From: Candidatus Shapirobacteria bacterium
Lineage (GTDB): Bacteria; Patescibacteriota; Microgenomatia; UBA12405; BS750m-G30
Assembly (NCBI GenBank): GCA_043817235.1
Contig: JBDRHA010000011.1
Span: 107,467-171,466, forward strand
DNA length: 64,000 bases
Direction: 5' to 3'
Position numbers and translations under genes: made by a program. The notes under the pieces were generated by a model, which worked only from the letters and a program-made list of their open reading frames with translations, was not told the origin of the DNA and searched no databases. This document shows positions 629-19,147 of this stretch, one piece after another; the stretch's first letter is position 1; each line of letters opens with the position of its first letter.

Positions 629-1341
629 TCGCTTAAATAATTCTGAATTATTTGCTCAAAAACTGAATAGGGCTGAGCACCGTTTACGAAAGTGCCACTT
701 ACTTGACCGCTCTCATCTAGCCGACCAATAACAAAAGCCGGAGTACCGTAAATTCCAGCTTTAGCCGCATCAGTTTTATCTTTTTCTACCTCCACAGCAA
801 GATCTTTATTGTCTAAACAGTTGATTAATTTTTGGCCGTCGATTCCCAAACTCTTGGCCAAATTAATTAATTTATCTTCAGCCATTCCTTGCCCGTTGCC
901 GGCAGTATTTTGGTATAGTAGATCATGATAGAGAAAATAAACCTCGTCTCCGCTTTGCTCCTGAACACATTCGCCAGCGATGGCTTCTTTTAAAGCAGCC
1001 GGGTTATGAAAATCCAGAGGCAAGTCGCGAAAAACTAAAATTGCCTTACCCGTGTGAATATAATTCTCTTTAATTTGACCAAGAGTTTGCTCGTAAAAAC
1101 GCTTGCAGTAAGGACACTCATAGTCACTAAATTCTACGATTGCTACTTTCGCCCCGGATTTATCTCCCAAGACTGGGTCATCATCCAAAGAAACTGTCTT
1201 TTGGGGAGAAGCAACAGAAGTTGGTGAAGAGCTCGATATCTGTTCGTTCTTATTCGGCCTAGAAAAACCCTGTAAGCCAAAAAAAATAGCCAAAGAAATC
1301 ATTGCCCCTACCAAAAGAAAAGTTAAAATATTCTTGTTCAT
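625..1341 (-). CDS. DsbA-family thiol:disulfide oxidoreductase (thioredoxin fold)
   Basis: CPYC active-site motif (ECPYCKRFYE), N-terminal TM anchor; 4-nt overlap with the downstream gene. Confidence 0.75.
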   Translation of the reverse strand: MNKNILTFLLVGAMISLAIFFGLQGFSRPNKNEQISSSSPTSVASPQKTVSLDDDPVLGDKSGAKVAIVEFSDYECPYCKRFYEQTLGQIKENYIHTGKAILVFRDLPLDFHNPAALKEAIAGECVQEQSGDEVYFLYHDLLYQNTAGNGQGMAEDKLINLAKSLGIDGQKLINCLDNKDLAVEVEKDKTDAAKAGIYGTPAFVIGRLDESGQVSGTFVNGAQPYSVFEQIIQNYLSE

Positions 1342-1347
1342 CTTTTA

Positions 1348-1620
1348 TTAACGATTAAAAAGATTAGCAACCTGCAGTATCTCCTTCGTCATTTTTTGCT
1401 TTCTGACTTCGTTTTTAGATTGCATGGCTTCTTTGAAACAAGTATTAAGATGATTTCTCATTAACTGCTGATGAGCTGATCGCAAAAGGCCGATAACAGC
1501 TAAATTCTGCTGCATGAGATCAATGCAATATTGATCCTCTTCCATCATCTGAATAATCTTTGCAATATGACTTTTGGCTTTTTTAAAATTAGTTAACACT
1601 TTTTGATTATCGTTTTTCAT
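1348..1620 (-). CDS. CsoR/RcnR-family metal-sensing transcriptional repressor
   Basis: 90 aa with the pattern ...QYCIDLMQQ...SAHQQLMRNHLNTC..., i.e. the Cys / His-x3-Cys ligand arrangement typical of Cu-sensing CsoR. Confidence 0.65.
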   Translation of the reverse strand: MKNDNQKVLTNFKKAKSHIAKIIQMMEEDQYCIDLMQQNLAVIGLLRSAHQQLMRNHLNTCFKEAMQSKNEVRKQKMTKEILQVANLFNR

Positions 1621-1684
1621 TAGCTTTTTCTTACCTGCACCTCAGGTCTAGGTCTCTAAAGAATACTAATTTATTAAATCTTTG

Positions 1685-2058
1685 TCAAGGGGCAAAATAT
1701 AGTAACATCTGGGAAAAATCGATTCCGTCGCCGAAAAAGAAAAACAAAGAAGGGTTTCCATCATCATGTATAGTAGCTAAACTAGTCACATATTCTATAT
1801 TTTTGATCTCAATCCCCACTTCTTCTTTAACTTCTCTTTTTAAAACTTTTTCCAAAACGTTATACCAGTAAAACTCTGTCTCTTTAGGAAGATCAATATA
1901 ATCACTAATTTCTAGCTTTCCTCCGGGTACTGTCCATTTAACCAGGAAATCTTTTTTTTGAAGGAGCCCGCCGAGTAATTAAATATTTGCCATCTCTAAT
2001 CAATCACAATCGCTGTGATTACTACCTCATGCAATCGCTCATTATTAACCTTACTCAT
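1685..2058 (-). pseudogene. NUDIX hydrolase gene disrupted by two frameshifts
   Basis: Minus-strand pieces: MSKVNNERLHEVVITAIVID*, then (frame -1) LIRDGKYLITRRAPSKKRFPG*, then a frame change inside an A8 homopolymer (1958-1965) to ...DFLVKWTVPGGKLE...REVKEEVGIEI (Nudix-box-like). None of the pieces is in the ORF track. Confidence 0.45.
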
Positions 2059-2193
2059 TTAAGAAGTCTACAAAAAAACAAGCCTGCAATTCTAATTTCT
2101 CTTTTTTGATAATTTTAATTGCCTTTTTCAAACACCAATGCTCCGGCCGACTTAATTTTTTTTAACATCTGCTGAATCTTCTTGCTTTTAATG

Positions 2194-2589
2194 CTACTTC
2201 TTTTTCGCTTTTTTGGACTTCTTAGGTTTTTCTGGTTTTTTGTTGTCTTCCAGCAAGCCTATGATCTTGGCAAGATTAGCATTAAGGGCCTCTATGTTTT
2301 GGGAAAGCTTGTTTATGCTTTGCTCATTTGGACCTCTTGGTAACGATGACCTATTTGAATCCCGGCCGCCAAAATCTCGCCTATAAGAGCCCCTGCGGTC
2401 AGGCTTTCGCTCGTCTCCTCCGCCTCTTTTTTCAAAACAGTCACTGCAGTAAATGGGCTTATCTCCACTAGGCCGAAAAGGCACTTGGCAATTTCTGCCG
2501 CATTCATCACAAACAGCATCATGCATTGCTGGCCTTCCTGAGTCTCTTCTGTTTCCTGATCTATTATTATCCCTAAAATTTCTCATCAA
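2194..2589 (-). CDS. zinc-ribbon protein with Arg/Gly- and Lys-rich tails
   Basis: CDECGRNC...FRPSGDKPIYCSDCF four-Cys ribbon, then RGG/RRD low-complexity and a KKSKKAKKK tail; start uncertain (MMRNF or MHDAV). Confidence 0.45.
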   Translation of the reverse strand: MMRNFRDNNRSGNRRDSGRPAMHDAVCDECGRNCQVPFRPSGDKPIYCSDCFEKRGGGDERKPDRRGSYRRDFGGRDSNRSSLPRGPNEQSINKLSQNIEALNANLAKIIGLLEDNKKPEKPKKSKKAKKK

Positions 2590-2688
2590 TATATCTTTCT
2601 ATTTGTATTTGTAAATTTGTAAATATAATATTCTAATAGACTGTAAGTATACGCGGTATAAGTTCCAATAGCAAGAGTAAATAGAGCA

Positions 2689-3279
2689 TTGACTTTTTTT
2701 AGTCCAACAGCTATCATATTTTTAATGAGCGAAGTTGGAGAAGCGCCTCCTCAAGAAACATTAAAAGACAGGATAGATGGAACTTGGGATAGAAGATACA
2801 GTTTTTATCATCTTTCTCCAGATTCTAGGCTCGCTTTCTTGCCGGGACGAAAAGAAGCCAAAGACAGAGAGGCAGCCGTCTATGCTAGCCAACGAGCAGC
2901 CAGAAAAATCTGGACGCTAAAAAGTACACTTCCAGAGGAGTCAAGAGACAGAAGAATAATAGAGCTTGCCGGGGATTATGGAAAGGAAACTTGGGGATTA
3001 CTCGGTTCCCCAAGCATGATTATAGCTTCAGGGAAACCAATGGCTGAAGACCTGGTAAGCCGGGGGTTTTATACTGACTCTGGCAAGGCTCTCCATGACC
3101 TTATTGACCCACATCTAGCCGAATTGTCTTTAATCGGAACAAGGCAATTACCGGAAAATTCTCTAAAAAGAAGAATCGCAATCGGAAAAAGAAGAGCCGA
3201 GCTTGTCGAAGCTTCCCGAAATCATGATTCCAGGGTTCAGGCTTGGCTTAAGGAAAAAATGAAAAAAAGAGTCCGCTGA
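2689..3279 (+). CDS. hypothetical protein
   Basis: 196-aa ORF with no recognisable motif; true start may be the internal MSEVGE. Confidence 0.3.
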   Translation: MTFFSPTAIIFLMSEVGEAPPQETLKDRIDGTWDRRYSFYHLSPDSRLAFLPGRKEAKDREAAVYASQRAARKIWTLKSTLPEESRDRRIIELAGDYGKETWGLLGSPSMIIASGKPMAEDLVSRGFYTDSGKALHDLIDPHLAELSLIGTRQLPENSLKRRIAIGKRRAELVEASRNHDSRVQAWLKEKMKKRVR

Positions 3280-3327
3280 TAAAAAACACGAGAGACATCT
3301 TTTGCCCCATAATATTAAAACAAGACG

Positions 3328-3939
3328 ATGCAAATACAGACTTTTGTCTTAGGAGAACTGCAAACTAATTGCTACTTAGTTTTTGAGGAAACAGGCGAGG
3401 CGGCTGTGATTGATCCGGCAGATGAAGCAAATTTTATTTCCGAACAAATTTTAAAGCAAAATTTAAAACTTAAGCATATTATTGCCACCCATGGACATTT
3501 TGACCATATTTTAGCGGCCTGGGAATTAACTTTAGCTTTTGATCTGTCGTTATCACTTCATCCTAAAGATAAATTTATGGCTGATTATATGCAAAAATCA
3601 GCTCAATATTGGCTCAAAAGAAAAATAATTGAAAAGCCGCCGGAAAAAGTAAAAGATTTAAAAGAAAAATATATTCAATTCGGCCGGCAGAAATTAAAAG
3701 TTATTCTTACCCCCGGCCATACACCAGGAAGTATCTGTTTGTATTCCCCAAAAGAAAAAGTTCTTTTTACCGGCGATACTCTTTTTGCCGATGGAGTTGG
3801 CCGCACTGATTTGCCTTATGGTTCGGAAAAAAACCTATCTATTTCCTTAAAAAAATTAGCAAAGCTTCCTGAAAATACAAAAATTTACTCTGGGCATGGA
3901 CCGGCAGGCGCACTAAAAGACATCACACGCCGGGCGTGA
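3328..3939 (+). CDS. MBL-fold metallo-hydrolase (glyoxalase II-like)
   Basis: THGHFDHI metal-binding motif, later GH and D residues; 203 aa. Confidence 0.75.
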   Translation: MQIQTFVLGELQTNCYLVFEETGEAAVIDPADEANFISEQILKQNLKLKHIIATHGHFDHILAAWELTLAFDLSLSLHPKDKFMADYMQKSAQYWLKRKIIEKPPEKVKDLKEKYIQFGRQKLKVILTPGHTPGSICLYSPKEKVLFTGDTLFADGVGRTDLPYGSEKNLSISLKKLAKLPENTKIYSGHGPAGALKDITRRA

Positions 3940-4077
3940 CCCAAGCCACACCTGGTGTGTGGCAATCTCTGTTTGGAATTGCTGGTTCCGCGCAGGATTG
4001 CCGCGTCAGTCGCTTCGCTTCCTTCCTCGCAATGACAATGTTAACAACTCGCGATGACATTGATATCTCTAATAACT

Positions 4078-4911
4078 CTAAAAAGTCTTTTTTAGATTAT
4101 TAATTATTCTTCTTTGTTCAGCTGTTAATCTTTGGGGTATTTTAGCTTTAATCTGAACATATTCATCTCCCAAAGATCTAAATATTCCGCCGGTTTTTAG
4201 GCCCTGACCACGCAAGCGAATTAAACTTCCGGACTGAGTTCCTGGCCTAATTCTTAATTTTAGTAAACCGCTTATGGTGGGAACTTCCACCGCTCCTCCT
4301 AGCACCAAAGTTGGGTAATCAACTTCCTTGCTCACAATAATATTCTGCCCTTCCCTTTTGAAAACCGGATGAGGCTTGACCGAAATAATTAAATTAAAAT
4401 CCGAAAAACGAATTCTCTGGCCATTATCCACTCCAGGCGGAATTTTAATTTTGCGTCTTCTTCCTTCAATGCTCACCTGCTTTTCCACTCCTTTAATAGC
4501 TTCCATAAAATCTAACTCAACTTGATAAGTAGGCTGAGCCCTTTGGCCGGAAAAAGGAGAGTCCCCGCCAAAAAATTGTTCAAAAATATCAAAAGGATTG
4601 GAAAAATCAAACCCTTCCGGCGTTCCTCCTCCAGAAGTAGAGTAGGTATAAGTAAATGGGCCTTGGCGATAAGAATGAGCCCCCTCTTGAGAAGAAGGCA
4701 CTTCTCCGAACTGATCGTAAGTTTCTCTTTTTTTGGAATCAGACAAAATCTCGTAAGCAGCGTTGATTTCCTTAAATTTATCTTCTGCTTCTTTGGTTTT
4801 ATTGCGATCCGGATGCCATTTTAAAGCCAGCTTGCGATAAGCACTCTTGATTTCTCCCAAGCTTGCTTTTTTATCAACGCCCAAGACGTTGTAATAGTCC
4901 TTTTTCATCAA
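4078..4911 (-). CDS. dnaJ: DnaJ-class co-chaperone lacking the Zn-finger (CbpA-like)
   Basis: J-domain DYYNVLGV...[14 protein letters not shown] with HPD, G/F region, no CxxCxGxG repeats; last gene of the hrcA-grpE-dnaK operon. Confidence 0.75.
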
Positions 4912-8453: not shown

Positions 8454-9638
8454 CTATTGACTATAGCATTTCTCCCAGGAATCCATGGCCCACATGGCGT
8501 CATCTCCGCCGCATGGTTTCCAGCCGTCTATCAGCTTCTCTGCATAGACATCCGCCATCGAGCGGGCCGCGGGATCAGCGGCAGGTGAGAACGGCGCTAA
8601 AGTAATCGCGCCTTCTGCCAAGCCATGATTCCACCTGAACCCTACGAAACCTCCCTCCAGAGTTTTCCGGACGGCCCAGGTGTATATGTCCGACCAATCG
8701 ATCACCACGCTGGTGAGAATGTGGTCGTTGGGCGCCACGCGCTCGGCCCAGTTGGAATCGTAGCCGATCACCCAGACATCGGTGTCCACCAGCGCCGTAC
8801 CGGCAGCCGTGCTGTCCTGGTGCACTGCCACCACTCTCGCCCCCTCTTCTTTGAGCGCCAGCGCCCCGGCGGTCTCGTCGCCTAAGTTCTCCCAATTGTT
8901 GATATACACAGTGGAAATGCTGACCGGCAGCCCTCCCCCCTTCTCAGCCCAAGTGTCGGCGAAGCAGGCGGCGCACGCCCCGTGGTTGGAGGCTACCTGA
9001 GGATTCTCCGCATAGGCGCCCAGCATGCCAAGCTCAGGCTCATCCACAATAGCCGCCGCGGCAGCGCAGGCCGCACAGAATCCTTCCCACGATTTCGGGT
9101 ACATGGACACCAGGTTCGTGGCCACCGGCCCGCGGATGCAAGCGAAATTCACGTCGGGGTGGCTTGGCGCCACGTTTTCCTGCAGATCTTGGCACCAGTT
9201 CTCGGCGGTGACAAAGACCAGCCTGGCGCCTTTGGAAATCATGTCCTCAGCCACACGTGAAGCTTCTGTGGCGCTAAAATCCGTAGTCGCCGTCCAGGAA
9301 AGGGTGTTGACTACCACCTTACCTGTGCCATCCACAACTCTAAAGCCTTCCCCGTCCTCTTCCACCTGCATACCCTGGGATGGATCGTAGACAGCTTCCA
9401 AGGCCTGCCGCAGACCCTCCCGGTGCGCGGCCGACCAAGGGATCTGAACCGGCGAGATGTAGATCATTCCGATAGTAGTCAGATCCACAGTCTCTGCTGC
9501 ATCCGTAGGTTGCGACTGCGGCTGGGCGGTTAGCTGCACTGGCGGCGCTACTAGCGGAGCCGTGCACGCGCTGAAGACGCAGGACAGGGTGAACAAGAAA
9601 AACGTTGCGGCAAGGGCCACCAGGTGAACGCGTTTCAT
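8454..9638 (-). CDS. BMP-family (PnrA-like) ABC-transporter substrate-binding lipoprotein, probable nucleoside binding
   Basis: High-GC gene. RBS AAAGGAG plus ATG at 9638, giving MKRVHLVALAATFFLFTLSC with a lipobox; BMP-family motifs. The ORF-track start at 9728 is probably too far upstream. Confidence 0.65.
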   Translation of the reverse strand: MKRVHLVALAATFFLFTLSCVFSACTAPLVAPPVQLTAQPQSQPTDAAETVDLTTIGMIYISPVQIPWSAAHREGLRQALEAVYDPSQGMQVEEDGEGFRVVDGTGKVVVNTLSWTATTDFSATEASRVAEDMISKGARLVFVTAENWCQDLQENVAPSHPDVNFACIRGPVATNLVSMYPKSWEGFCAACAAAAAIVDEPELGMLGAYAENPQVASNHGACAACFADTWAEKGGGLPVSISTVYINNWENLGDETAGALALKEEGARVVAVHQDSTAAGTALVDTDVWVIGYDSNWAERVAPNDHILTSVVIDWSDIYTWAVRKTLEGGFVGFRWNHGLAEGAITLAPFSPAADPAARSMADVYAEKLIDGWKPCGGDDAMWAMDSWEKCYSQ

Positions 9639-9850
9639 CTTGTGTTCTCCTTTTCTTTTTTTTTGAGTACTCGGGACAACAACGCCGGCTTGCCAAGCCT
9701 TTAGGCAATTCCTCCTTTTAAGGTGCATAAAAAAAGAAAGGTTTTTTAGGGAAATCGCAATTGACTTCCCCTTGCCTTTCTTTTAATTCCTCTGTTTTTG
9801 AGAAACAAAAGAAATCCTATTATTATATACTAAGACTCATTTTACTTCTC

Positions 9851-9905
9851 GGGAACCGGGGGCTTGTTTGTCAAAAATCGACAAAAACAAAGCCGCCCGG
9901 CTCCC
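9851..9905. repeat. 55-bp hairpin-forming repeat, copy 2
   Basis: Perfect 55/55 identity with 8376-8430; lies between the two BMP genes. Confidence 0.9.
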
Positions 9906-9929
9906 AAAAGCACCTTAATCTGAAGGCTA

Positions 9930-11023
9930 CTACGGAGCGCCCACCACCCCCTCTACGAACCAACTCATGGAAAGCATGTCAGCGTCGCTCATGCACTGGC
10001 CGGAAGCGATTGCTAGAGCACCGTCCTGGCTATTGATAGGACCGCAGAAGACGTCCCACTCGCCACTGAGGATGACCTGCTCGCGCTCTTCCACCAGGTC
10101 CGCCACATCGACCGGCACACGCTCGCTCAGATCAGCCAGGGCCACGATGCCATCATTCATGCTGCCCCAGTACTGGTGCGTCTCCCAACTTCCATCGAGC
10201 ACGGCCTGCACCTGCCGCACGTAGTAGGGACCCCAATTCCACATGGGGCTGGTCAACACCGTGTCGCCCACGAACTCACGCATATCCGAGTCGTAGCCGA
10301 TGCTCAAGGCCCCGCGGTCGGCGGCGGCCTTCTGGGGTTCGGTGGTGTCCTGATGTTGAGCGATGATGTCAGCGCCCACATCGAGCAGCCCTTCGGCGGC
10401 TTCCTTCTCCAGGACCGGGTCGAACCAGGTGTTGGTCCAGACCACGCGCACCTCGGCTTCGGGATTGGCCTCGCGCACACCCAGGGTGAAAGCGTTGATG
10501 CCGCGCACAACCTCAGGGATGGGGAAGGCGGCGACATAGCCAATGATGTTGGAATGGGTCATGCGGCCAGCCACCAGACCAGAGAGGTAGCGGGGCTGGT
10601 ACATACGGCAAAGTAAGTAGCGGCGTTGTCCAGCGTCTTGTAGCCGGAGCAGTGCATGAAGACCACGTTGGGGTACTCGGCGGCGACGTTGACCGTCGGG
10701 TCCATGAACCCAAACGAGGTGGTGAAAATGACGTCGTAGCCTCGTTGGGCGAAGTCGCGGATGACCCGTTCGGCATCCGGGCCTTCGGGCACGTTTTCGA
10801 TGTAGGTGGTTTCGACTTGATCGCCGAAGGTTGCTTCGACCTGCAGTCGACCTTGCTCGTGGGCCCAGGTCCAGCCGAGGTCACCGATAGGGGCGACGTA
10901 GACGAAGGCTACTCTGAGAACCTCCGCCTCAGGGGCAGGAGCCGCGGGCTGAGCCACTGGCGGCGCGCAACCAACTATCAACGCTAGAATCACGACAACT
11001 AGCAAAGCCAAATTCTTCTTCAT
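9930..11023 (-). pseudogene. BMP-family substrate-binding lipoprotein gene split by a frameshift near 10600-10660
   Basis: N-terminal piece 10559-11023 (MKKNLALLVVVILALIVGC lipobox, RBS CTCCTT at 11032) and C-terminal piece 9930-10604 are in different frames. The concatenation reads as one BMP protein (...KTLDNAATYFA / RMYQPRYLSGLVAGRM...). Confidence 0.55.
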
Positions 11024-11095
11024 CTTTCTTCTCCTTAAGAATTATTGAGATGAGACAGAGGTGCGATGTTCTGCACCTCTGTCTTTGCGAAACTC

Positions 11096-13033
11096 CTACC
11101 GCACGACCTCCCTGCATTCCCCGGTGGTCACGTTGACGAATCCGGAGGGGCAGTCCTCGAAGGGAGCCACGAGCACCCACTTCCAAGGCTGGCAGGTCAG
11201 GGTTTGGAACCGTGCCGATTCGGCACTTTGGAGCGCGGCTGAACTATATGCCGGGCTCTCCACTGGCAGGTAGGAGAGCCATTCCAGTCCGGCGGCGGAC
11301 TCCCAGAAAGCCTCGAAATCCTCGGCTACCTCATGCGCGGGTCGCGACGACATGAGCCCGCCGATCTCCAACTGGACATAGTCCACTACCTCGCCACCCG
11401 AGACCAGGACATAGCCGCCGTTGATGGAGGCCAGGTAGTTGACGGCCTGAGCCATGGCCTCGTCGCTGGTGCCCATCACCTGGACGTTGTGATTATCGTG
11501 CGCCTCGCTCAGGGCGAAGGCCGTATCCGGCGTGGCCGGACCGACGTCGCGCCAGAACATGCAGGCCACCGGATCTGCTAGCGCATTGTAGCGGTCGACG
11601 ATGCAGAACTTGCTGACCTTGTTGGCGACGTCGCGCTGGACCGCTCCGTCTACCACCGGCAGCTCGACTTCTGGGTAGGTGGGAGCGAAGTAGAACTGGC
11701 TTAAGACGGCGGCCATGGCCGTATTGCCTTCTGCCGCCACCACGAAATCGTCTGCCGTCACCTCGCGGCCGATGTTGATGGTGTCTTGCGCCCATTCTGG
11801 CCAGTCGACGGTCGGAATCTCGTAGACCAACTGGCCATCCACGCCGACGAGCTTGCCGGAGGCCCAGACTCTGTTGATATCGACGGTCTCCGGGTTGCGC
11901 AAGAGCACGACATGGGCATACCGCCCGGGGGCGATGGAGCCCACCAGGTGCTCGAGATGCCAGTGACGTGCGGCCGTATAGGAGGCCGAGGCGTAGGCTG
12001 CCTCTACAGGGACGCCCAGCTGGATCGCCGTCCTGGTGTTGTAGTCCATGGTCCCCAGCTCCAGAGCCTCGTCCACGCTTCGGTCGTCCGTGGTCCAGGA
12101 CATGTTGGACCAGTCCTTCAGCCCCATCTTGATAAGGTAAGGAATGACCTTTCCCATGGAGCCTGTCCTGATTTGAATGAAGACCCCGTGGCGAAGCTTG
12201 TCCAAGACTTCGGCGCCTTCGCGAATCTCGTGATCGGATGACAGCCCGGCGGCTGCGAAGGCATTGATCTCATCGTAGGTGAACATGCGGCTGCCGTGGC
12301 CCTCGATCACCCCGTCTGCATCCCAGGTGGCTTGTAAGGCCTGCCACATGCGTTCGTATCCGGGCATCTCTGGGTTCCACACCGATGGCCAGTCCATGAC
12401 CTCGCCCAGTCCAATCACCCAGGGGTGGCTGTTCATGAGCTCCGTGACCGCATCGTAGTCGTAGTAACCCCCGGTGAACTCGAACGGCGTCGGCGGGATG
12501 GCCGAGCCTAGCTGTGGGAAAATGGTTAGTGGGCTGCCATTCTGGTGGGGAAGCAGCCACAATTCGGCGTTGTGGTCGCCATCCACGTTGCCAAACTCGT
12601 GCGATGCTTCTGCGATCCAGGTTGTCCCCTGCGGCAGAACCACTTCGGCTTCGCGGTCCGGCGAAAGATGGCTGGACTCGATGTGCTTGTGGGGTTCGCC
12701 GAACCCCGGCACCGCGTAGAGGCCGTAGGCGTCCACCGTTTCCGCGGCCGTTCCCGACCAGGCGCCGCGGGGACCCACCCAGGCAATCCGCTCGCCTTTG
12801 ATGACGATGTCCTGGCTGGGCATCCAGGTTAGGGTGTGGACGTCGAGGACCGTTGCACCGGAAATGATCAGGTCTGCTTCGGCCCTGCCCAGAGCGACCA
12901 GCACCAGCTCCTGGCGGACCTTCACTTCATCCGATGGGAAGTCTTGCCGGTCGAAGTCGGCTGCGGCAGGCAATGCCCCTGTCACAAGCAGTGCTGCCAA
13001 CAGCATTACACTTAGCAATGCTTTGTGTTTCAC
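11096..13033 (-). CDS. adenine deaminase family amidohydrolase with an N-terminal Sec signal peptide
   Basis: ISGATVLDVHT and PGFGEPHKHIESS and GLGEVMDWP match adenine deaminase motifs. The likely start is GTG at 13031-13033 preceded by AAGGAG, giving MKHKALLSVMLLAALLVTGALPAAADF. Confidence 0.6.
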   Translation of the reverse strand: MKHKALLSVMLLAALLVTGALPAAADFDRQDFPSDEVKVRQELVLVALGRAEADLIISGATVLDVHTLTWMPSQDIVIKGERIAWVGPRGAWSGTAAETVDAYGLYAVPGFGEPHKHIESSHLSPDREAEVVLPQGTTWIAEASHEFGNVDGDHNAELWLLPHQNGSPLTIFPQLGSAIPPTPFEFTGGYYDYDAVTELMNSHPWVIGLGEVMDWPSVWNPEMPGYERMWQALQATWDADGVIEGHGSRMFTYDEINAFAAAGLSSDHEIREGAEVLDKLRHGVFIQIRTGSMGKVIPYLIKMGLKDWSNMSWTTDDRSVDEALELGTMDYNTRTAIQLGVPVEAAYASASYTAARHWHLEHLVGSIAPGRYAHVVLLRNPETVDINRVWASGKLVGVDGQLVYEIPTVDWPEWAQDTINIGREVTADDFVVAAEGNTAMAAVLSQFYFAPTYPEVELPVVDGAVQRDVANKVSKFCIVDRYNALADPVACMFWRDVGPATPDTAFALSEAHDNHNVQVMGTSDEAMAQAVNYLASINGGYVLVSGGEVVDYVQLEIGGLMSSRPAHEVAEDFEAFWESAAGLEWLSYLPVESPAYSSAALQSAESARFQTLTCQPWKWVLVAPFEDCPSGFVNVTTGECREVVR

Positions 13034-13500
13034 GTTAATCTCCTTGTTGGTTGGTATATGGTGAATCGCGGTGTTGGCCAAGAACGCTTGGCGTTAACGC
13101 TGTCCTCTGCCTTCATCTGGTTGACTGCCAGATTAAGACAGTTCTTGCTTTTTTAAAAGCAAGACGAATATAGGAACAGCAGGAAGAAAAAACCACTAAA
13201 AATATTAATCTAATAATCTTTTTTTCCCGCTGTTCCTTTAGCCTTCAAATTGTTAAGGTGCTTTAAAAAAGTTCAGAGAAAAGCGCTTGAAAAAATCGCT
13301 TTTGATTTTTTTAGCTTTTTTCTCCAGTTTCCCTTTTTGGAAACAAAAAAACCCGGGATATATTTATCCCAGGTTCAGATTTTTTCCAAAACACAAAAAC
13401 GGTATTTGGTATGTGGCGCCCTGTTTCATTTATTTTATCTCCGGCAGGCCTTTGAGATACTATATTGTTTAAGCAAATATAGCTTTTTTCTAAAAGCTCG

Positions 13501-14061
13501 TCAAGACTCAGATTTGAAAATCGGCAAAGAAACTAGATATTCAAACGGCTCAAGTTCTTCAAATAATTTTTCTCCTTGTTTGACAATCGCCCCAAAAACG
13601 ACTATATCTGCTTCACACTTTTCCATTAATTTTTTCATCATTCGCATGGTCACACCGGTAGAAATAACATCGTCCACGATGGCTACTTTTTTTCCTTTGA
13701 TTAAATCCCGATCTAAGCCGTCAATTACTAGAGGCTTAACGTGTTTAGGAAAATGCGGCAAGGGTTTTAAAACCAAAGGATTAATCATATGCGGCTTGCG
13801 GCTTTTGCGGCAAATAACATAATGCTTATGGTTAAAAATGTTAGCCAGCTGATCAATTAAAGGTACTACTTTTACTTCCGGCCCCACTAGATAATCAAAA
13901 TCATATTTTTTTAGTTTCTTATAAAGCGCTTTGGCCGTCGCTCTAATCAGCAAAACATCTCCGGAAATGTTCAAACTGGCAATTTTAGTGTTCTTGCCAA
14001 TTCCGATTAAGGGCAATTTTCTTTGTAAACCGCAGATTGCAAGATCATAAAAATCTCTCAC
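13501..14061 (-). CDS. type I phosphoribosyltransferase (purine PRTase-like)
   Basis: PRPP-binding motif KVAIVDDVISTGVTM; 186 aa; low-GC native gene right beside the high-GC island. Confidence 0.6.
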   Translation of the reverse strand: MRDFYDLAICGLQRKLPLIGIGKNTKIASLNISGDVLLIRATAKALYKKLKKYDFDYLVGPEVKVVPLIDQLANIFNHKHYVICRKSRKPHMINPLVLKPLPHFPKHVKPLVIDGLDRDLIKGKKVAIVDDVISTGVTMRMMKKLMEKCEADIVVFGAIVKQGEKLFEELEPFEYLVSLPIFKSES

Positions 14062-14098: not shown

Positions 14099-15124
14099 AT
14101 GACTCCTTGGATTCCAGTGATTATCGTGGTAATTAGTCTTGTTGGCGTAGGAATTTATATTGAAAGAAAATTTAAAAACTTAAGCTCCCAGGTTAAGCCA
14201 GACGAAACTTTAATAGAATGGCTCAAAAGCCAGCAACAAGATTGGCAAAAATCCCAGCAAGATTTTAATCAGACTTTGCGCTCTACCAACCAAAATATTC
14301 AGCAGGTTTTAACTGCCAGCACCCAATCTTTAAATAAAAGACTAGATAACGCAGCCCAATATATGTCTCAAGTAGCCAAAGAAGTCGGCCAAATGAGCGA
14401 AATTGGAAGGTCAATGAAGCAGCTCCAGGAATTCTTGCAAAGCCCAAAACTCCGAGGGAATATTGGCGAGGAAGTTTTAAAAGACTTAATTGGCCAAATG
14501 TTTCCAAAAAACAGCTTTCACTTGCAATATCAATTTAAAACCGGAGACAAAGTTGACGCCGCCCTAAACACCGAAGCCGGAATTTTGCCCATAGATTCTA
14601 AGTTTCCTATGGAAAACTTCCGCAAGTCTACTTCTGCCGAAAACAAAATAGAAAGAGCAAAATTCAAAAAAATATTCGCCTCGGACGTGAAAAAACATAT
14701 CAAGGCTGTTGCCAAAAAATATGTTCTTCCGGAAGAAGGAACTTTAGATTTTGCCCTGATGTATGTGCCTTCGGAAGCTGTTTATTATGAAGTAGTGAAT
14801 GAACCAGAAATAATAGAATTTGCCCGAAAGCTAAGAATTTATATAGTTTCCCCCAGTACCTTATATGCCGTTTTGCAAACTATTTTACTTTCTTTTGAAG
14901 GAAAGAGAATTGAGCAAGAAGCAAGGCAAGTTTTTCGCTTATTGCGCGCTATTCAGCAGGATTATCAGAAAACCGAAACGGAAATGTCGGTTCTTGGAAA
15001 ACATATTGGCAATGCTTACTCGAAAATGAACGAGGTCTTCCAAAGATTTTCTTTGCTGGGCCAAAAAATCAGCAGCGCTACTCAGCTTCCCCAAACAAAA
15101 GAAACCAAAAAGATTAAGAGCTGA
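14099..15124 (+). CDS. rmuC: DNA recombination protein RmuC
   Basis: N-terminal TM, Gln-rich coiled coil, C-terminal LKDLIGQMFPKNSFHLQYQFKTGDKVDAAL...LPIDSKFPMENF typical of RmuC. Confidence 0.7.
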   Translation: MTPWIPVIIVVISLVGVGIYIERKFKNLSSQVKPDETLIEWLKSQQQDWQKSQQDFNQTLRSTNQNIQQVLTASTQSLNKRLDNAAQYMSQVAKEVGQMSEIGRSMKQLQEFLQSPKLRGNIGEEVLKDLIGQMFPKNSFHLQYQFKTGDKVDAALNTEAGILPIDSKFPMENFRKSTSAENKIERAKFKKIFASDVKKHIKAVAKKYVLPEEGTLDFALMYVPSEAVYYEVVNEPEIIEFARKLRIYIVSPSTLYAVLQTILLSFEGKRIEQEARQVFRLLRAIQQDYQKTETEMSVLGKHIGNAYSKMNEVFQRFSLLGQKISSATQLPQTKETKKIKS

Positions 15125-15139
15125 TGATAAAATTAGCTG

Positions 15140-18100
15140 ATGACAATTAAGTTAAACCCTACCCAGAAAGAGGCGGTCAAACATGAAAAAGGCCCGCTTT
15201 TGATTATTGCCGGAGCCGGAACTGGAAAAACAACAGTAATTACCGAGCGAATCAAATGGCTTATTACCAAAAAAAACATTCTTCCTTCTCAAATCCTAGC
15301 TCTTACTTTTACTAATAAAGCCGCTTTGGAAATGGAAGAGAGGGTGGACTTAGCTTTACCCCTGGGCTATTCTAATATGTGGATTTCTACTTTTCATTCT
15401 TTTGGCGATAGAGTGTTGCGAGATGAGGCAGTGCATATCGGTCTTGATCCGAATTTTAAGCTCCTCTCCCAAGCCGAATCTCTGCTTTTTTTGCGAAAAA
15501 ATTTATTTAAGCTAAAACTAAATTACTTTAGGCCGGCCACTAACCCGACCAAGTTTTTAGACGCCTTACTTACCCATTTTGCCCGGCTGGCAGATGAATA
15601 CATCAGCCCTCAAGAATATTTAAATTTTGCCCAAAAACAAAAAGATAAAGCCGACACCAAGGAAGAGAAACTGGAAGCAAAAAAAAGCTTGGAGCTGGCT
15701 AATTGTTTTGCCCAATGCCAAATCTTGAAAGAAAAAAACGGATTTATGGACTTTAGTGACCTGATCAGCAACACCTTAGCTTTATTTAATAAGAGGCCAA
15801 ATATTTTGCGAAATTATCAGGAAAAATTTAAGCATGTTTTGGTGGACGAATTTCAAGATACAAATATTGCCCAAAACGAACTAATCAGTTTGCTTACCCT
15901 AAAGAAAGGAAATATTACAGTGGTAGCTGACGATGACCAATGTTTACCTGCCAATACTCTCATCGAAACCCCACAGGGACGAAAAAATATCAAAAATATT
16001 AAGACAGGAGATATGGTAATAACAGGCGTTGGTAAAGGCTATGTTTCTGCTAAAAAAGTAACTAAAAAATTTACTTCTAAAAAAACAGCAGACTTTCTGT
16101 CAGTAACAATGGAATGTGGAAAAAACCTAACATTAACAGCAAATCATCTAGTCTTCTGCTATACTCCACGTTTTTATACTAACAAAAAATGGTATTACAT
16201 CTATCTAATGGAAAATAAAGATTTGGGCTGGCGATTAGGAGTAACTCATGATCTTGTCCAAAGGCTTAAGTTGGAAAGAAGCGCGGATAGGATTATTGCG
16301 ATTAAAGCCTGTAAAACTAATCAGGAAGCTCATTATTGGGAATCTTACTATTCATTAAAATATAAAATACCTACCGTTTGCTTTAAAGAAAGAGGAAATC
16401 TTATCGCCGGCGAATGGCTTAAAAAGCTTTATTCGGCAATTGACAGCAAAAAGGGAGCAATTAATTTAGCAAATGATCTTCAAATTGAACTTAGCAGACA
16501 TCATTATTGCCTAGATGCAGTGAATCGAGGAAGCAAGAAAAGAACGAAAGTAAATCTCTATTTATGCCTGAGAAAACATCGAATTAAGAAACATTTAAAA
16601 AATAATATTCTCATCAATCCCAAGATAGTTCATCAAGTCGGAATCACCACCTCAAATAAAAGAGTCATTAATATTGTCAGATCTTTAGGACTAGATATGA
16701 CGAAAGGCAAAAAGAACACCAAAGCCTTTAGAAAGCAGTTTAGCTCCTTCATTGAAGCCGGAAAATTTGCGCGATATCTTGCAGACAGCACTAAGGCAAT
16801 TTTGGACATTAAAACTGCAATCGCAACTAAAAACGGTATTTCTAAACAAGCAAGAGTTATGCCTGCAAGCAATCTCGTCGAGGGCATATATTTACCCATA
16901 TTAAAAAATAATAATATTGTTTACGACGAAATCGTCGCAATCTCTAGAAAAAGAAAAACACAAACTGTTTATGATTTAGAGATAGAAGACAGCCATAATT
17001 TCATCGCCAATCAAATCGTTGTTCATAATTCTATTTATAAGTGGCGCGGAGCAGCAATTTCCAATGTGCTTCAATTTAAAAAGAATTTTCCAAAAACTAA
17101 GATAATTACCCTTAATCAAAACTATCGCTCTACTCAGGAAATTTTAGATCGCGCTTATCAGCTCATCCAGAACAATAACCCGGACCGGCTGGAAGTTAAA
17201 GAAAGAATCAATAAAAAACTCAAAGCAGTTCGCCCAATTAAAGGAAAACCAATAGAACTTATTTTTACTCCCAGAGCAGAGCAGGAGGCAGAAGAGGTGG
17301 CTATAAGAATTAAAAAACTAGTTAGCCGGAAATATGAGCCAAGAGATGTTGCTATTTTAGTCAGAGCCAACAGCCAAGCCGAATCTTTTACTCGCGCCCT
17401 TTCCCGTAACAATATTCCCTATCAATTTTTAGGCCCAGGCCAGCTTTTTCGCCAGCCGGAAATTAAAAACTTGATTTCTTATCTTAAGATTCTTACTAAT
17501 CCGGAAGATAATGTAGCCCTTTTTCGCTTAAGCAATTTGCCTGTTTTTAAAATCTGGGCACGCGATTTAGCTTTTAGCAATAGCTTTGCTAAAAAGAATA
17601 ACCTATCCCTTTTTGAAGCCTTTGAAAAAATTAGTCAAAAAAAGAAAAAAAATGAGGAATTAAATCTCCCTTCATTTGCCAAGGTTAGCCAGAACGGAAT
17701 AAAAAAATTGGTCAAAATAGTTTATCGCCATTGGAAACTTGTTTCCAAAGAGTCGGGCGGCCAGCTGCTTTACTATTTTTTAGAACAAACCAAGCTCTTA
17801 GAACAGTATTTAAAACCGGAAACAGAAAATCAACAGCTGGCCGCCCTAAATATTGCCAAATTTTTCGATAAAATAAAAAGCTTTGAAGCTCAAAATAAGG
17901 AAACCCTAGCAGGGGATTTATTAGACTGGATTACCCTAAGAATGGAAATGGGAGAAAGCCCGCAGGCCTCAGAAATTGATTGGACAAACTATAATGCTGT
18001 AAATATTATCACTATTCACTCGGCCAAAGGCCTTGAGTTTCCGATTGTCTTTCTGGTTAACCTGGTCAACCGCCGCTTTCCCACTGATAAAAGAAGGGAA

Positions 18101-19147
18101 GCTATTCCCATCCCCCAGCCACTAATCAAGGAAATCCTACCTAAGGGAGATTACCACCTACAAGAAGAGCGCCGGCTTTTTTATGTCGGGCTTACCCGAG
18201 CCAAAGACCAAGTCTTTTTAACTGCTGCCAAAGTGTATCCAGAAAGAAAGCTGGAAAAGAAACTTTCAATTTTTGTGAACGAAACCCTAGGCGATCAAAA
18301 AGAAAGGTCAATATTAAACGAGAAAAGCTCATCCTTAGCCGAATGGGAAAAAGAAAAGCAAGTGGAAAAAGCACCTGTTCTAAATCCACCCGTGAGCTTT
18401 CTTTCCTATTCTCAAATTGATGCTTTTGACATTTGTCCCCGGCAATATCAATATAAATACGCCCTAAGAATAACTACTCCCCCTTCGGCTACCCAAACCT
18501 TTGGCAGTATCGTCCACCAAACCTTAAAAGCTTTCTGCCAAAAACAAATTGCCGCAAACCACAAGCTTAAGCAGGAAGAATTATTAAAATTACTTTCCCA
18601 AAGCTGGATTTCCCGGGGATTTAAAAGCAAACTGGAAGAAAAAAAAGCCAAGCAAAATGCGGCTAAGATGTTAAAAAATTACTATCAAAAGGGCTTTAAT
18701 TATCAAAACGTAGACCAGGTTATGGCCCTAGAACAGTCCTTTAATTTTAAAATCACACCCGGTTTAAAAATTGGGGGGATTATTGACCGAGTAGACAATT
18801 TGAAAAACAATCAAATAGAAATTATTGATTATAAAACAGGAGCCAGAATACCCAAGCAAAAAGACGTTGACGGAAACGACCAGCTTACTCTTTATGCTTT
18901 AGCGGCCAGCTCGCTTAAAGATCTAAGCTTTTATCGGCCCTTAAACAAAATTATTCTTTCTCTATATTTTTTGGATCAAGGGAAAAAACTAAGCAGTAAG
19001 CGCACACCCAGCCAAATTGGTAAATTTAAGGAAAAAATAATTAACCTGGCTAAAGAACTGGAAAAAACCAACTTCCCTTCCCAGCCGAACACGCCTTTTC
19101 CTTGTGATTTCTGTGAATACAAGCTTCTTTGCGACGCCTGGCACTAA
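15140..19147 (+). CDS. UvrD-family helicase fused to a C-terminal Cas4/AddB-like PD-(D/E)xK FeS nuclease; intein-interrupted
   Basis: Walker A AGAGTGKTT, motif II VLVDEFQDTN, motif III split as VVADDDQ/.../SIYKWRGA. C-terminus has DICPRQY...IDYKTG...CDFCEYKLLC (Cas4-like nuclease with a 4-Cys cluster). Confidence 0.8.
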   Translation: MTIKLNPTQKEAVKHEKGPLLIIAGAGTGKTTVITERIKWLITKKNILPSQILALTFTNKAALEMEERVDLALPLGYSNMWISTFHSFGDRVLRDEAVHIGLDPNFKLLSQAESLLFLRKNLFKLKLNYFRPATNPTKFLDALLTHFARLADEYISPQEYLNFAQKQKDKADTKEEKLEAKKSLELANCFAQCQILKEKNGFMDFSDLISNTLALFNKRPNILRNYQEKFKHVLVDEFQDTNIAQNELISLLTLKKGNITVVADDDQCLPANTLIETPQGRKNIKNIKTGDMVITGVGKGYVSAKKVTKKFTSKKTADFLSVTMECGKNLTLTANHLVFCYTPRFYTNKKWYYIYLMENKDLGWRLGVTHDLVQRLKLERSADRIIAIKACKTNQEAHYWESYYSLKYKIPTVCFKERGNLIAGEWLKKLYSAIDSKKGAINLANDLQIELSRHHYCLDAVNRGSKKRTKVNLYLCLRKHRIKKHLKNNILINPKIVHQVGITTSNKRVINIVRSLGLDMTKGKKNTKAFRKQFSSFIEAGKFARYLADSTKAILDIKTAIATKNGISKQARVMPASNLVEGIYLPILKNNNIVYDEIVAISRKRKTQTVYDLEIEDSHNFIANQIVVHNSIYKWRGAAISNVLQFKKNFPKTKIITLNQNYRSTQEILDRAYQLIQNNNPDRLEVKERINKKLKAVRPIKGKPIELIFTPRAEQEAEEVAIRIKKLVSRKYEPRDVAILVRANSQAESFTRALSRNNIPYQFLGPGQLFRQPEIKNLISYLKILTNPEDNVALFRLSNLPVFKIWARDLAFSNSFAKKNNLSLFEAFEKISQKKKKNEELNLPSFAKVSQNGIKKLVKIVYRHWKLVSKESGGQLLYYFLEQTKLLEQYLKPETENQQLAALNIAKFFDKIKSFEAQNKETLAGDLLDWITLRMEMGESPQASEIDWTNYNAVNIITIHSAKGLEFPIVFLVNLVNRRFPTDKRREAIPIPQPLIKEILPKGDYHLQEERRLFYVGLTRAKDQVFLTAAKVYPERKLEKKLSIFVNETLGDQKERSILNEKSSSLAEWEKEKQVEKAPVLNPPVSFLSYSQIDAFDICPRQYQYKYALRITTPPSATQTFGSIVHQTLKAFCQKQIAANHKLKQEELLKLLSQSWISRGFKSKLEEKKAKQNAAKMLKNYYQKGFNYQNVDQVMALEQSFNFKITPGLKIGGIIDRVDNLKNNQIEIIDYKTGARIPKQKDVDGNDQLTLYALAASSLKDLSFYRPLNKIILSLYFLDQGKKLSSKRTPSQIGKFKEKIINLAKELEKTNFPSQPNTPFPCDFCEYKLLCDAWH
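15941..17029 (+). mobile_element. intein (363 aa) inserted in helicase motif III
   Basis: Starts with Cys (CLPANTLIETPQGRKNIKNIKTGDMV, block A) right after DDDQ. Ends ...VYDLEIEDSHNFIANQIVVHN followed by Ser (block G, HN+S). The host motif SIYKWRGA resumes in frame. Confidence 0.75.

Follow-up and report, generated by a model that had tools for sequence, protein, structure and literature searches.

What occupies the middle of ATPase motif III in a helicase-nuclease gene, and what might the occupying segment encode besides the domain for its own removal? This question was raised by a 64,000-nucleotide stretch of contig JBDRHA010000011.1 from a Candidatus Shapirobacteria bacterium (hereafter the window), in which a single uninterrupted open reading frame (ORF) at 15140-19147 on the + strand encodes a 1335-aa precursor of 153.6 kDa, identical to the NCBI metagenome-assembled genome (MAG) protein P0004 of Candidatus Shapirobacteria. 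A reading made earlier from the nucleotides and their translations (the sequence-only reading) had placed an intein in motif III of this gene and supposed that its middle part was either degenerate or of a family other than LAGLIDADG. The evidence assembled in this study favors, with a probability of about 0.7, a bifunctional class-1 intein in motif III of a UvrD/PcrA-type helicase-nuclease, carrying a divergent homing endonuclease of the GIY-YIG type.

The insert in motif III and its splicing domain

The insert lies at 15941-17029 (+ strand) and encodes 363 aa (41.5 kDa, pI 9.95), with a stop-free translation from CLPANTLIETPQGR to EDSHNFIANQIVVHN; it begins with Cys, ends with His-Asn and is followed by Ser, exactly as the sequence-only reading had placed it. 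When the insert alone was searched, Pfam Intein_splicing matched with 61.8 bits (E 8.4e-17, cutoff 35.8), and Pfam Hint (31.7 bits, cutoff 29.7), NCBIfam intein_Cterm (TIGR01443, 27.8 bits vs. cutoff 15.6) and NCBIfam intein_Nterm (TIGR01445, 25.0 bits vs. cutoff 24.5) matched as well. Because these intein and Hint models exceed their curated cutoffs, the intein identity of the insert is far beyond chance.

The Hint N-terminal half (intein aa 1-80; 15941-16180, + strand), delimited by intein_Nterm, Hint and an alignment with the gp41-1 intein, contains block A with Cys1 and block B (T66-A-N-H69) at 16136-16147. The Hint C-terminal half (intein aa 311-363; 16871-17029, + strand), delimited by Intein_splicing, intein_Cterm and matches to the DnaB and RadA inteins, contains block F, TVYDLEIEDSHNFIAN, at 16964-17011 and block G (H362-N363) at 17024-17029. 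Consistently, the gp41-1, DnaB and RadA inteins were the top solved-structure sequence matches of the intein. The full class-1 residue set is present, namely Cys1, T66/H69, D345/H352 (in TVYDLEIEDSHNFIAN), H362-N363 and Ser+1, and the splicing residues (C1, T..NH and so on) are conserved across 104 and 47 family members, so that the Hint blocks noticed earlier were borne out in all their parts. Judged from its sequence, 15941-17029 is almost certainly a class-1 intein that splits helicase motif III (VVADDDQ|SIYKWRGA). The intein is slightly richer in AT than the exteins, with a third-position GC content of 0.30 vs. 0.38-0.39.

The N-extein (aa 1-267; 15140-15940, + strand) contains helicase motifs I to II together with the initial half of motif III and closes with VVADDDQ, while the C-extein (17030-19147, + strand) starts at Ser+1 with the second half of motif III (SIYKWRGA) and continues with the remaining helicase and a PD-(D/E)XK nuclease domain (18401-19135, + strand). 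In the precursor, the Pfam UvrD-helicase match (E 7.5e-69) is interrupted at residue 268, UvrD_C (E 7.7e-61) picks up again at 656, and PDDEXK_1 (E 2.9e-38) covers residues 1088-1332. The nuclease carries the cysteine pattern C...CX2CX5C, one Cys being in DICPRQY and three in CDFCEYKLLC, and all four are also kept in the orthologs P0005, P0007, P0054 and P0075. The scores against the NCBIfam equivalog models of PcrA, UvrD, Rep, AddA/B and Cas4 were all far under the cutoffs, so the host is none of these specifically. From these domain matches and residues it is classed as a UvrD/PcrA-type SF1 helicase fused to a Cas4/AddB-like, four-cysteine PD-(D/E)XK nuclease of the predicted Fe-S type.

Joining the exteins in silico gave a 972-aa product with an intact motif III (flanks NITVVADDDQ | SIYKWRGAAIS), in agreement with the helicase of about 970 aa plus Cas4/AddB-type nuclease that had been expected. 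The predicted spliced product is 112.1 kDa in mass, with motif III restored as VVADDDQSIYKWRGA and the junction peptide ...VVADDDQSIYKWR; at the DNA level, the reconstituted insertion site reads ACCCTAAAGAAAGGAAATATTACAGTGGTAGCTGACGATGACCAA|TCTATTTATAAGTGGCGCGGAGCAGCAATTTCCAATGTGCTTCAA.

Empty insertion sites in orthologs

The spliced product was used as the query to search for relatives, of which thousands were found, and the counts given here are from the best-ranked ones. The nearest relatives, P0005-P0011, are 65-71% identical over 100% of the length, are 969-984 aa long and lack the insert; they are uninterrupted across the site, TGDDSQSIYKFRGA, and the 65-71%-identical intein-free orthologs show DDSQSIYKFRGA. 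None of P0005-P0011 keeps the 363-aa segment as a fixed domain, the finding that would have spoken against an intein. The closest orthologs, P0005 and P0007 (71% identical, 969-973 aa), have a continuous GDDSQSIYKFRGA at the site. Further, the locus that encodes P0007 (L056) has the same DnaK-GrpE-HrcA...RmuC-helicase-nuclease order as the window and an uninterrupted site. The split of motif III described by the sequence-only reading was thus matched by an empty site in a syntenic locus. Only two of the 119 other best extein relatives (P0054 and P0075) carry the intein, of the same type and in the same place, and its presence among close orthologs is therefore patchy.

A 303-aa fragment, P0001, from a 267-kb contig (L057, ENA contig_4152) was considered as a decayed intein copy and rejected, as the RmuC, MFS transporter and helicase genes are all fragmented on this contig. 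Nearly all genes of L057 were called in fragments, which indicates a frameshift-rich assembly, so its protein fragments are no evidence of intein decay; the contig is probably an error-rich assembly rather than one with real pseudogenes.

The middle domain of the intein resembles GIY-YIG nucleases

Direct searches, made with single sequences and with profiles of 4 and of 45 sequences, covered Pfam, NCBIfam, PHROGs and PDB sequences. Intein residues ~76-322 matched nothing there at usable significance; the sole hints were a match to Pfam GIY-YIG (E 0.074) and one to the UPF0213 protein 1zg2 (E 0.63). The region was then modeled with AlphaFold2; a 4-sequence alignment gave an unusable model (pLDDT 54), which was superseded by one from a 45-sequence alignment with a pLDDT of 92.1 and a pTM of 0.87. 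In this model, a beta-beta-alpha-beta-alpha module is followed by two helices and then by an alpha/beta module. The first is the GIY-YIG-like nuclease module (intein aa 84-150; 16190-16390, + strand), which in the model has the GIY-YIG core of a three-stranded sheet with flanking helices. The second is a linker (16391-16540, + strand) whose two helices (intein aa ~157-180; H82-91 and H94-105 of the model in alignment numbering) are possibly helix-turn-helix-like, and which had no family match in the family-library searches. The third is the C-terminal alpha/beta module (intein aa 201-310; 16541-16870, + strand), which is very basic (pI 11.2, with 25 K+R vs. 4 D+E) and putatively binds DNA.

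Family sequences then allowed the first module to be compared more sensitively. Among 51 modules searched, 12 matched Pfam GIY-YIG at E<=10 (best E 4.5e-4), and no other family there was shared by two or more modules, T5orf172 and MUG113 having one match each. In PHROGs, four families had matches from at least two modules, and three of these families are annotated 'endonuclease' or 'homing endonuclease'. When the 51-sequence profile was aligned by hhalign with a UPF0213 alignment, built from the PDB sequences 1zg2 and 1ywl and one YhbQ-like sequence that was validated against PDB at E 8e-18, a probability of 86.8% and an E of 4.2e-6 were obtained, with 39% identity over 49 columns. The YhbQ-like sequence alone gave E 2.4e-4, and I-TevI alone gave no significant hhalign match. 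The hhalign comparison paired Y88 with the GIY Tyr, R98 with the YIG Tyr, G100 with the Gly, R108 with the Arg, E112 with the His and E134 with the catalytic Glu.

The paired residues are also those on which the family does not vary. Y88, M90, R98, G100, R108, E112, E134 and P144 are invariant in 45 and in 51 diverse members, and the module consensus reads YVYLM....G.RIG.T.....R...E..AD........EA...E....YGIPT..F. In the window, the candidate residues are encoded on the + strand at 16202-16204 (Y88), 16232-16234 (R98), 16262-16264 (R108), 16274-16276 (E112) and 16340-16342 (E134), with G100 and P144 as further invariant positions. The 'GIY' tyrosine (Y88), the helix-1 Arg (R108) and the metal-binding helix-2 Glu (E134) are accordingly all invariant. 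The spacing from G100 to R108 is 8 residues, as it is in I-TevI from G19 to R27, and the position of His31 is taken by Glu112. The sequence matches, sub-threshold but specific, together with the profile-profile alignment, the model fold and the invariant residues, make it likely that the module is a divergent member of the GIY-YIG superfamily.

An antisense ORF of 88 aa (16633-16899, - strand) lies within the coding region of the C-terminal module and is without a match. Antisense endonuclease genes are known from within inteins (bioRxiv 10.1101/2025.01.02.630785); the 88-aa ORF, however, is disfavored as one in view of its small size and of the strong protein-level conservation of the sense-frame domain, and is probably spurious.

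Distribution of the intein family

To define the family, 1.84 billion representative proteins were searched exhaustively by HMMER with a 4-sequence profile of the central domain, which yielded 500 representatives at E<=1e-3, of which 242 reached E<=1e-10. In the best 150 of the 500, all those with visible junctions have the intein at ..DDxQ|C and HN|(S/C/T)(I/V/L/M)(Y/F)xxxG, in its narrower form ..(G/A)DDxQ|C and HN|(S/C/T)(I/V)(Y/F)xxxG(A/S), which is SF1 motif III, and the hosts are PcrA/UvrD-like proteins of ~900-1100 aa and helicase-nucleases of ~1300-1400 aa. A scan of one genome per species with the 4-sequence alignment, which samples only the close subfamily, found it in 54 species genomes of many phyla, including many Patescibacteria lineages, Omnitrophota, Rokubacteria, Saganbacteria, Margulisbacteria, Aerophobetes and Clostridia, as well as a Planctomycetales MAG and MAGs labelled Gammaproteobacteria. 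The 47 complete copies are all intact, 349-374 aa long, and sited at DD(D/S)Q|C...HN|(S/C). As judged from these junctions, a large intein family has its standard site in motif III; the insertion site is not peculiar to the Shapirobacteria gene, and UvrD inteins are already known as a class (PMC4760082). An impression that the intein is very rare was rejected as a sensitivity artefact: the indexed search, with 3 matches for the intein and 11 for the 45-sequence profile, was insensitive and did not recover P0054 or P0075, although both have this intein.

The intein type was also found in phages. Structural matches in BFVD include a 924-aa protein (E 9e-11) and a Siphoviridae helicase. Klebsiella phage KP13-16 (OP617741.1 98481-102077; positions 1021-4617 of locus L055) encodes a UvrD-like helicase of 1198 aa, annotated 'hypothetical protein', with this intein type: Hint matches and the GIY-YIG-like middle domain of the Shapirobacteria intein both recur in its second insert (aa ~585-934), and an upstream region (aa 249-292) has a LAGLIDADG_3 match. 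From these matches, the KP13-16 helicase appears to carry two inteins. In addition, the BFVD entry A0A8S5TZY8 (Myoviridae sp. ctCuC1, 782 aa, 'adenine specific DNA methyltransferase') matched the central-domain model in Foldseek at E 3.4e-5, and may be a different host protein for the intein type or a mis-named helicase.

Constraint on the module and signs of mobility

Mean pairwise identities over the 47 complete subfamily members were determined for each region. The GIY-YIG-like module was the most conserved with 62.7%, followed by the Hint C-terminal half (54%), the Hint N-terminal half (49%), the flanking extein (640 aa; 47%), the linker (44%) and the C-terminal module (40.5%). That the module surpasses the splicing domain in identity points to stronger constraint and speaks for a functioning module. 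The identity of the inteins was moderately correlated with that of the exteins (Spearman 0.44). Omnitrophota genomes with exteins 44% identical carry the nearest relatives of the Shapirobacteria intein (~50% identical), while a genome with an extein 62% identical to the Shapirobacteria host carries an intein 49% identical. Occasional horizontal movement fits this discordance and the patchy presence.

Proposed mechanism and alternative explanations

In the mechanism that we infer, translation would give the 153.6-kDa precursor with ATPase motif III broken, and the Hint domain would excise itself through an N-S acyl shift at Cys268, transfer of the N-extein to Ser631, cyclisation of Asn630 and an O-N shift, leaving the 112.1-kDa helicase-nuclease and a free 41.5-kDa intein. 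The free intein would carry a two-part endonuclease inserted between the Hint halves. Its first part would be the GIY-YIG-superfamily catalytic module, with Tyr88, Arg108 and Glu134 as the candidate active site and with Arg98 and Glu112 standing in for the canonical second Tyr and His; its second part, the short helical linker and the strongly basic alpha/beta module, would bind DNA and position the nuclease. Alleles lacking the intein would then be cut by the nuclease at the sequence that codes for motif III or close to it, and repair by recombination would copy the intein into the cut allele. That the central domain is a currently active homing endonuclease is given slightly better than even odds.

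Several observations count against a cleaving GIY-YIG enzyme. The Shapirobacteria module scored 19.1 bits (E 0.0017) against Pfam GIY-YIG (PF01541), under the cutoff of 22.6, and no sequence model attained a curated GIY-YIG threshold for the module. In place of the 'YIG' tyrosine there is the invariant R98, followed by I/L-Gly (T5orf172-type relatives presumably have Lys at this position), and the canonical His is replaced by E112 throughout the family. With two canonical catalytic positions substituted, activity is not inferable from the known GIY-YIG enzymes. There is no invariant Asn after E134, which is followed by the nearly invariant Y141 and F148 and by P144. Finally, there is no sign of recent homing among the 47 complete copies, the nearest inteins being only ~50% identical, and together with the moderate correlation of intein and extein identities this is compatible with long vertical residence as well.

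These observations leave some room, at odds of around one in five, for an insert that is GIY-YIG-like but does not cleave or never did, and that would serve to bind DNA or to regulate, to help folding or splicing in the manner of a maturase, or to sense conditions for splicing, in an intein that is mainly vertical. The family-wide substitutions just described would suit such a role, as would the failure to find near-identical inteins in distant hosts and the similar, correlated divergence of inteins and exteins; moreover, all 47 complete copies retain the full-size insert and mini-intein derivatives number 0, which is unusual for the cycle of invasion, decay and loss (PMC4760082). However, the invariant residues coincide with the GIY-YIG catalytic positions (Tyr, Arg and metal-binding Glu, with charged replacements), and the module is conserved beyond the splicing domain. 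The patchy presence, at 2 of 119, the nearest inteins being in hosts whose exteins are more distant than those of other intein-bearing hosts, and the same intein type in phage helicases likewise argue for a mobile, cleaving element.

A degenerate homing endonuclease of the LAGLIDADG type was also considered for the middle part, since the best Foldseek PDB matches of the model, all weak, proved to be the meganucleases I-OnuI, I-SmaMI, I-PanMI and I-CvuI, and LAGLIDADG is the usual intein endonuclease. The LAGLIDADG helix and family models nevertheless failed to match; neither a LAGLIDADG nor an HNH family matched the intein at any threshold used in Pfam, NCBIfam and PHROGs, and HNH was also absent among the fold matches of the model. 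This explanation was rejected as very improbable. The earlier remark that no obvious LAGLIDADG motif is present therefore held, and of the two possibilities then offered for the middle part, membership of another family stood and degeneracy fell. Least probable of all is a splicing-defective intein, making the host a pseudogene or dead allele or the 363 aa a permanent, non-excised helicase domain: motif III is essential and an unspliced protein would be inactive, but every residue of class-1 catalysis is in place and is kept in 47-104 relatives, no stop breaks the ORF of 1335 codons, both exteins are well conserved (71% identity with intein-free orthologs along 100% of the length), and orthologs without the segment exist.

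The bifunctional intein with a divergent GIY-YIG-type homing endonuclease is thus preferred. A broader proposal, which is more tentative and put at somewhat under even odds, is that the Shapirobacteria intein represents a large undescribed class of bifunctional inteins with an in-frame GIY-YIG enzyme (Tyr-Arg-Arg-Glu-Glu for Tyr-Tyr-Arg-His-Glu) and a new basic DNA-binding module, which would occupy only motif III of SF1 (UvrD/PcrA/Rep-type) helicases in many bacterial phyla and in phages.

Neighboring genes in the window

An RmuC-family gene directly precedes the helicase-nuclease gene both in the window (14099-15124, + strand) and in L056; in L057, RmuC is further upstream, with other genes intervening. 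The adjacency in the window and L056 suggests that the two form a DNA-recombination gene pair conserved in these Patescibacteria. Further upstream, a sharp GC island of 57-66% at 8454-13081 (genes on the - strand) stands out from the rest of the window (~38% GC). It contains two PnrA/Bmp-like nucleoside-binding lipoprotein genes and an adenine-deaminase-like amidohydrolase gene (661 aa), and a low-GC phosphoribosyltransferase gene is located at 13501-14061. Because HrcA and RmuC are only ~350 bp apart in the syntenic, intein-free L056, the island and the phosphoribosyltransferase gene are an insertion in the window. The island looks like a horizontally acquired purine-salvage cassette, or is possibly an assembly chimera. 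The overlapping ORFs 9930-10604 and 10559-11023 (- strand) match profile positions 109-275 and 3-103 of one Bmp/PnrA model, and look like one frameshifted gene, either a pseudogene or a sequencing error.

Comparison with known inteins and GIY-YIG enzymes

UvrD inteins have been catalogued, with 16 in five phyla given by Novikova et al. (2016; PMC4760082), and are also listed in PMC5874633; with such inteins on record, neither the Shapirobacteria intein nor its site is out of the ordinary. Neither source characterizes, in its available text, the endonuclease domain that these inteins carry. GIY-YIG enzymes have been described from group I introns and free-standing genes and as 'not ... in inteins' (PMC1564403, 2006), and likewise in PMC2677866, and the intein endonucleases of a 2025 survey all belong to the LAGLIDADG, HNH, Vsr-like or EndoVII-like types (bioRxiv 10.1101/2025.01.02.630785). 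The literature searched, which misses most subscription journals, contained nothing relevant on GIY-YIG inteins or on an intein with T5orf172. The intein and its site are hence of a known kind, and the endonuclease type appears to be unreported.

If the proposed reading is true, a common and phylogenetically wide intein family would fill the GIY-YIG gap and overturn the repeated statement of absence from inteins, and intein endonuclease acquisition would have drawn on one more nuclease fold, beside LAGLIDADG and HNH enzymes, reported in frame, and Vsr-like and EndoVII-like ones, reported in other arrangements. The compact nuclease, with its unusual GIY-YIG active site and its putative DNA-recognition module, would be aimed at a very conserved coding sequence of 30-40 bp, and may then serve as a site-specific nickase or a nuclease scaffold. 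For annotators, a region of ~230 aa without a Pfam, NCBIfam or PHROG model gains a name, in a protein called 'hypothetical protein' in at least one phage genome.

The UvrD/PcrA/Rep inteins of PMC4760082 and PMC5874633 share with the Shapirobacteria intein a COG0210 helicase host, a Hint domain of class 1 and a conserved ATPase motif as the place of insertion. The helicase inteins of PMC5874633 are at the P-loop, whereas the family of the Shapirobacteria intein is at motif III, and its host is a helicase-nuclease fusion from Patescibacteria, a phylum outside the 2016 list of PMC4760082.

Compared with GIY-YIG enzymes, the module differs in context and in active site. I-TevI, I-BmoI and the Seg proteins are intron-encoded or free-standing, whereas the Shapirobacteria module is in frame inside an intein; it has Arg for the second Tyr ('YIG') and Glu for the His, and the intein has an unrelated basic alpha/beta module instead of NUMOD, IENR or zinc-finger modules. 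The UPF0213/Slx1-type (URI) proteins (PDB 1zg2 and 1ywl; Slx1 6seh and 7cq2) are stand-alone or RING-fused repair nucleases, from which the Shapirobacteria module differs in its replaced active-site Tyr and His and in a shorter loop between the Arg helix and strand 3.

The fractured genes of Dassa et al. (2009; PMC2677866) likewise combine an intein and a GIY-YIG-type endonuclease at one locus, and the gp41-1 intein of that study is the best solved-structure match of the N-terminal half of the Shapirobacteria intein. In the fractured genes, however, the intein is split and the GIY-YIG/Vsr-like endonuclease is a separate ORF, while the Shapirobacteria intein is one polypeptide with the putative nuclease inside the Hint domain. 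With the LAGLIDADG inteins PI-SceI and PI-MtuI, the HNH inteins and the Vsr-like and EndoVII-like types, the Shapirobacteria intein shares the plan of an endonuclease between blocks B and F and a conserved site in a DNA-metabolism gene, but differs from all of them in the fold of the endonuclease.

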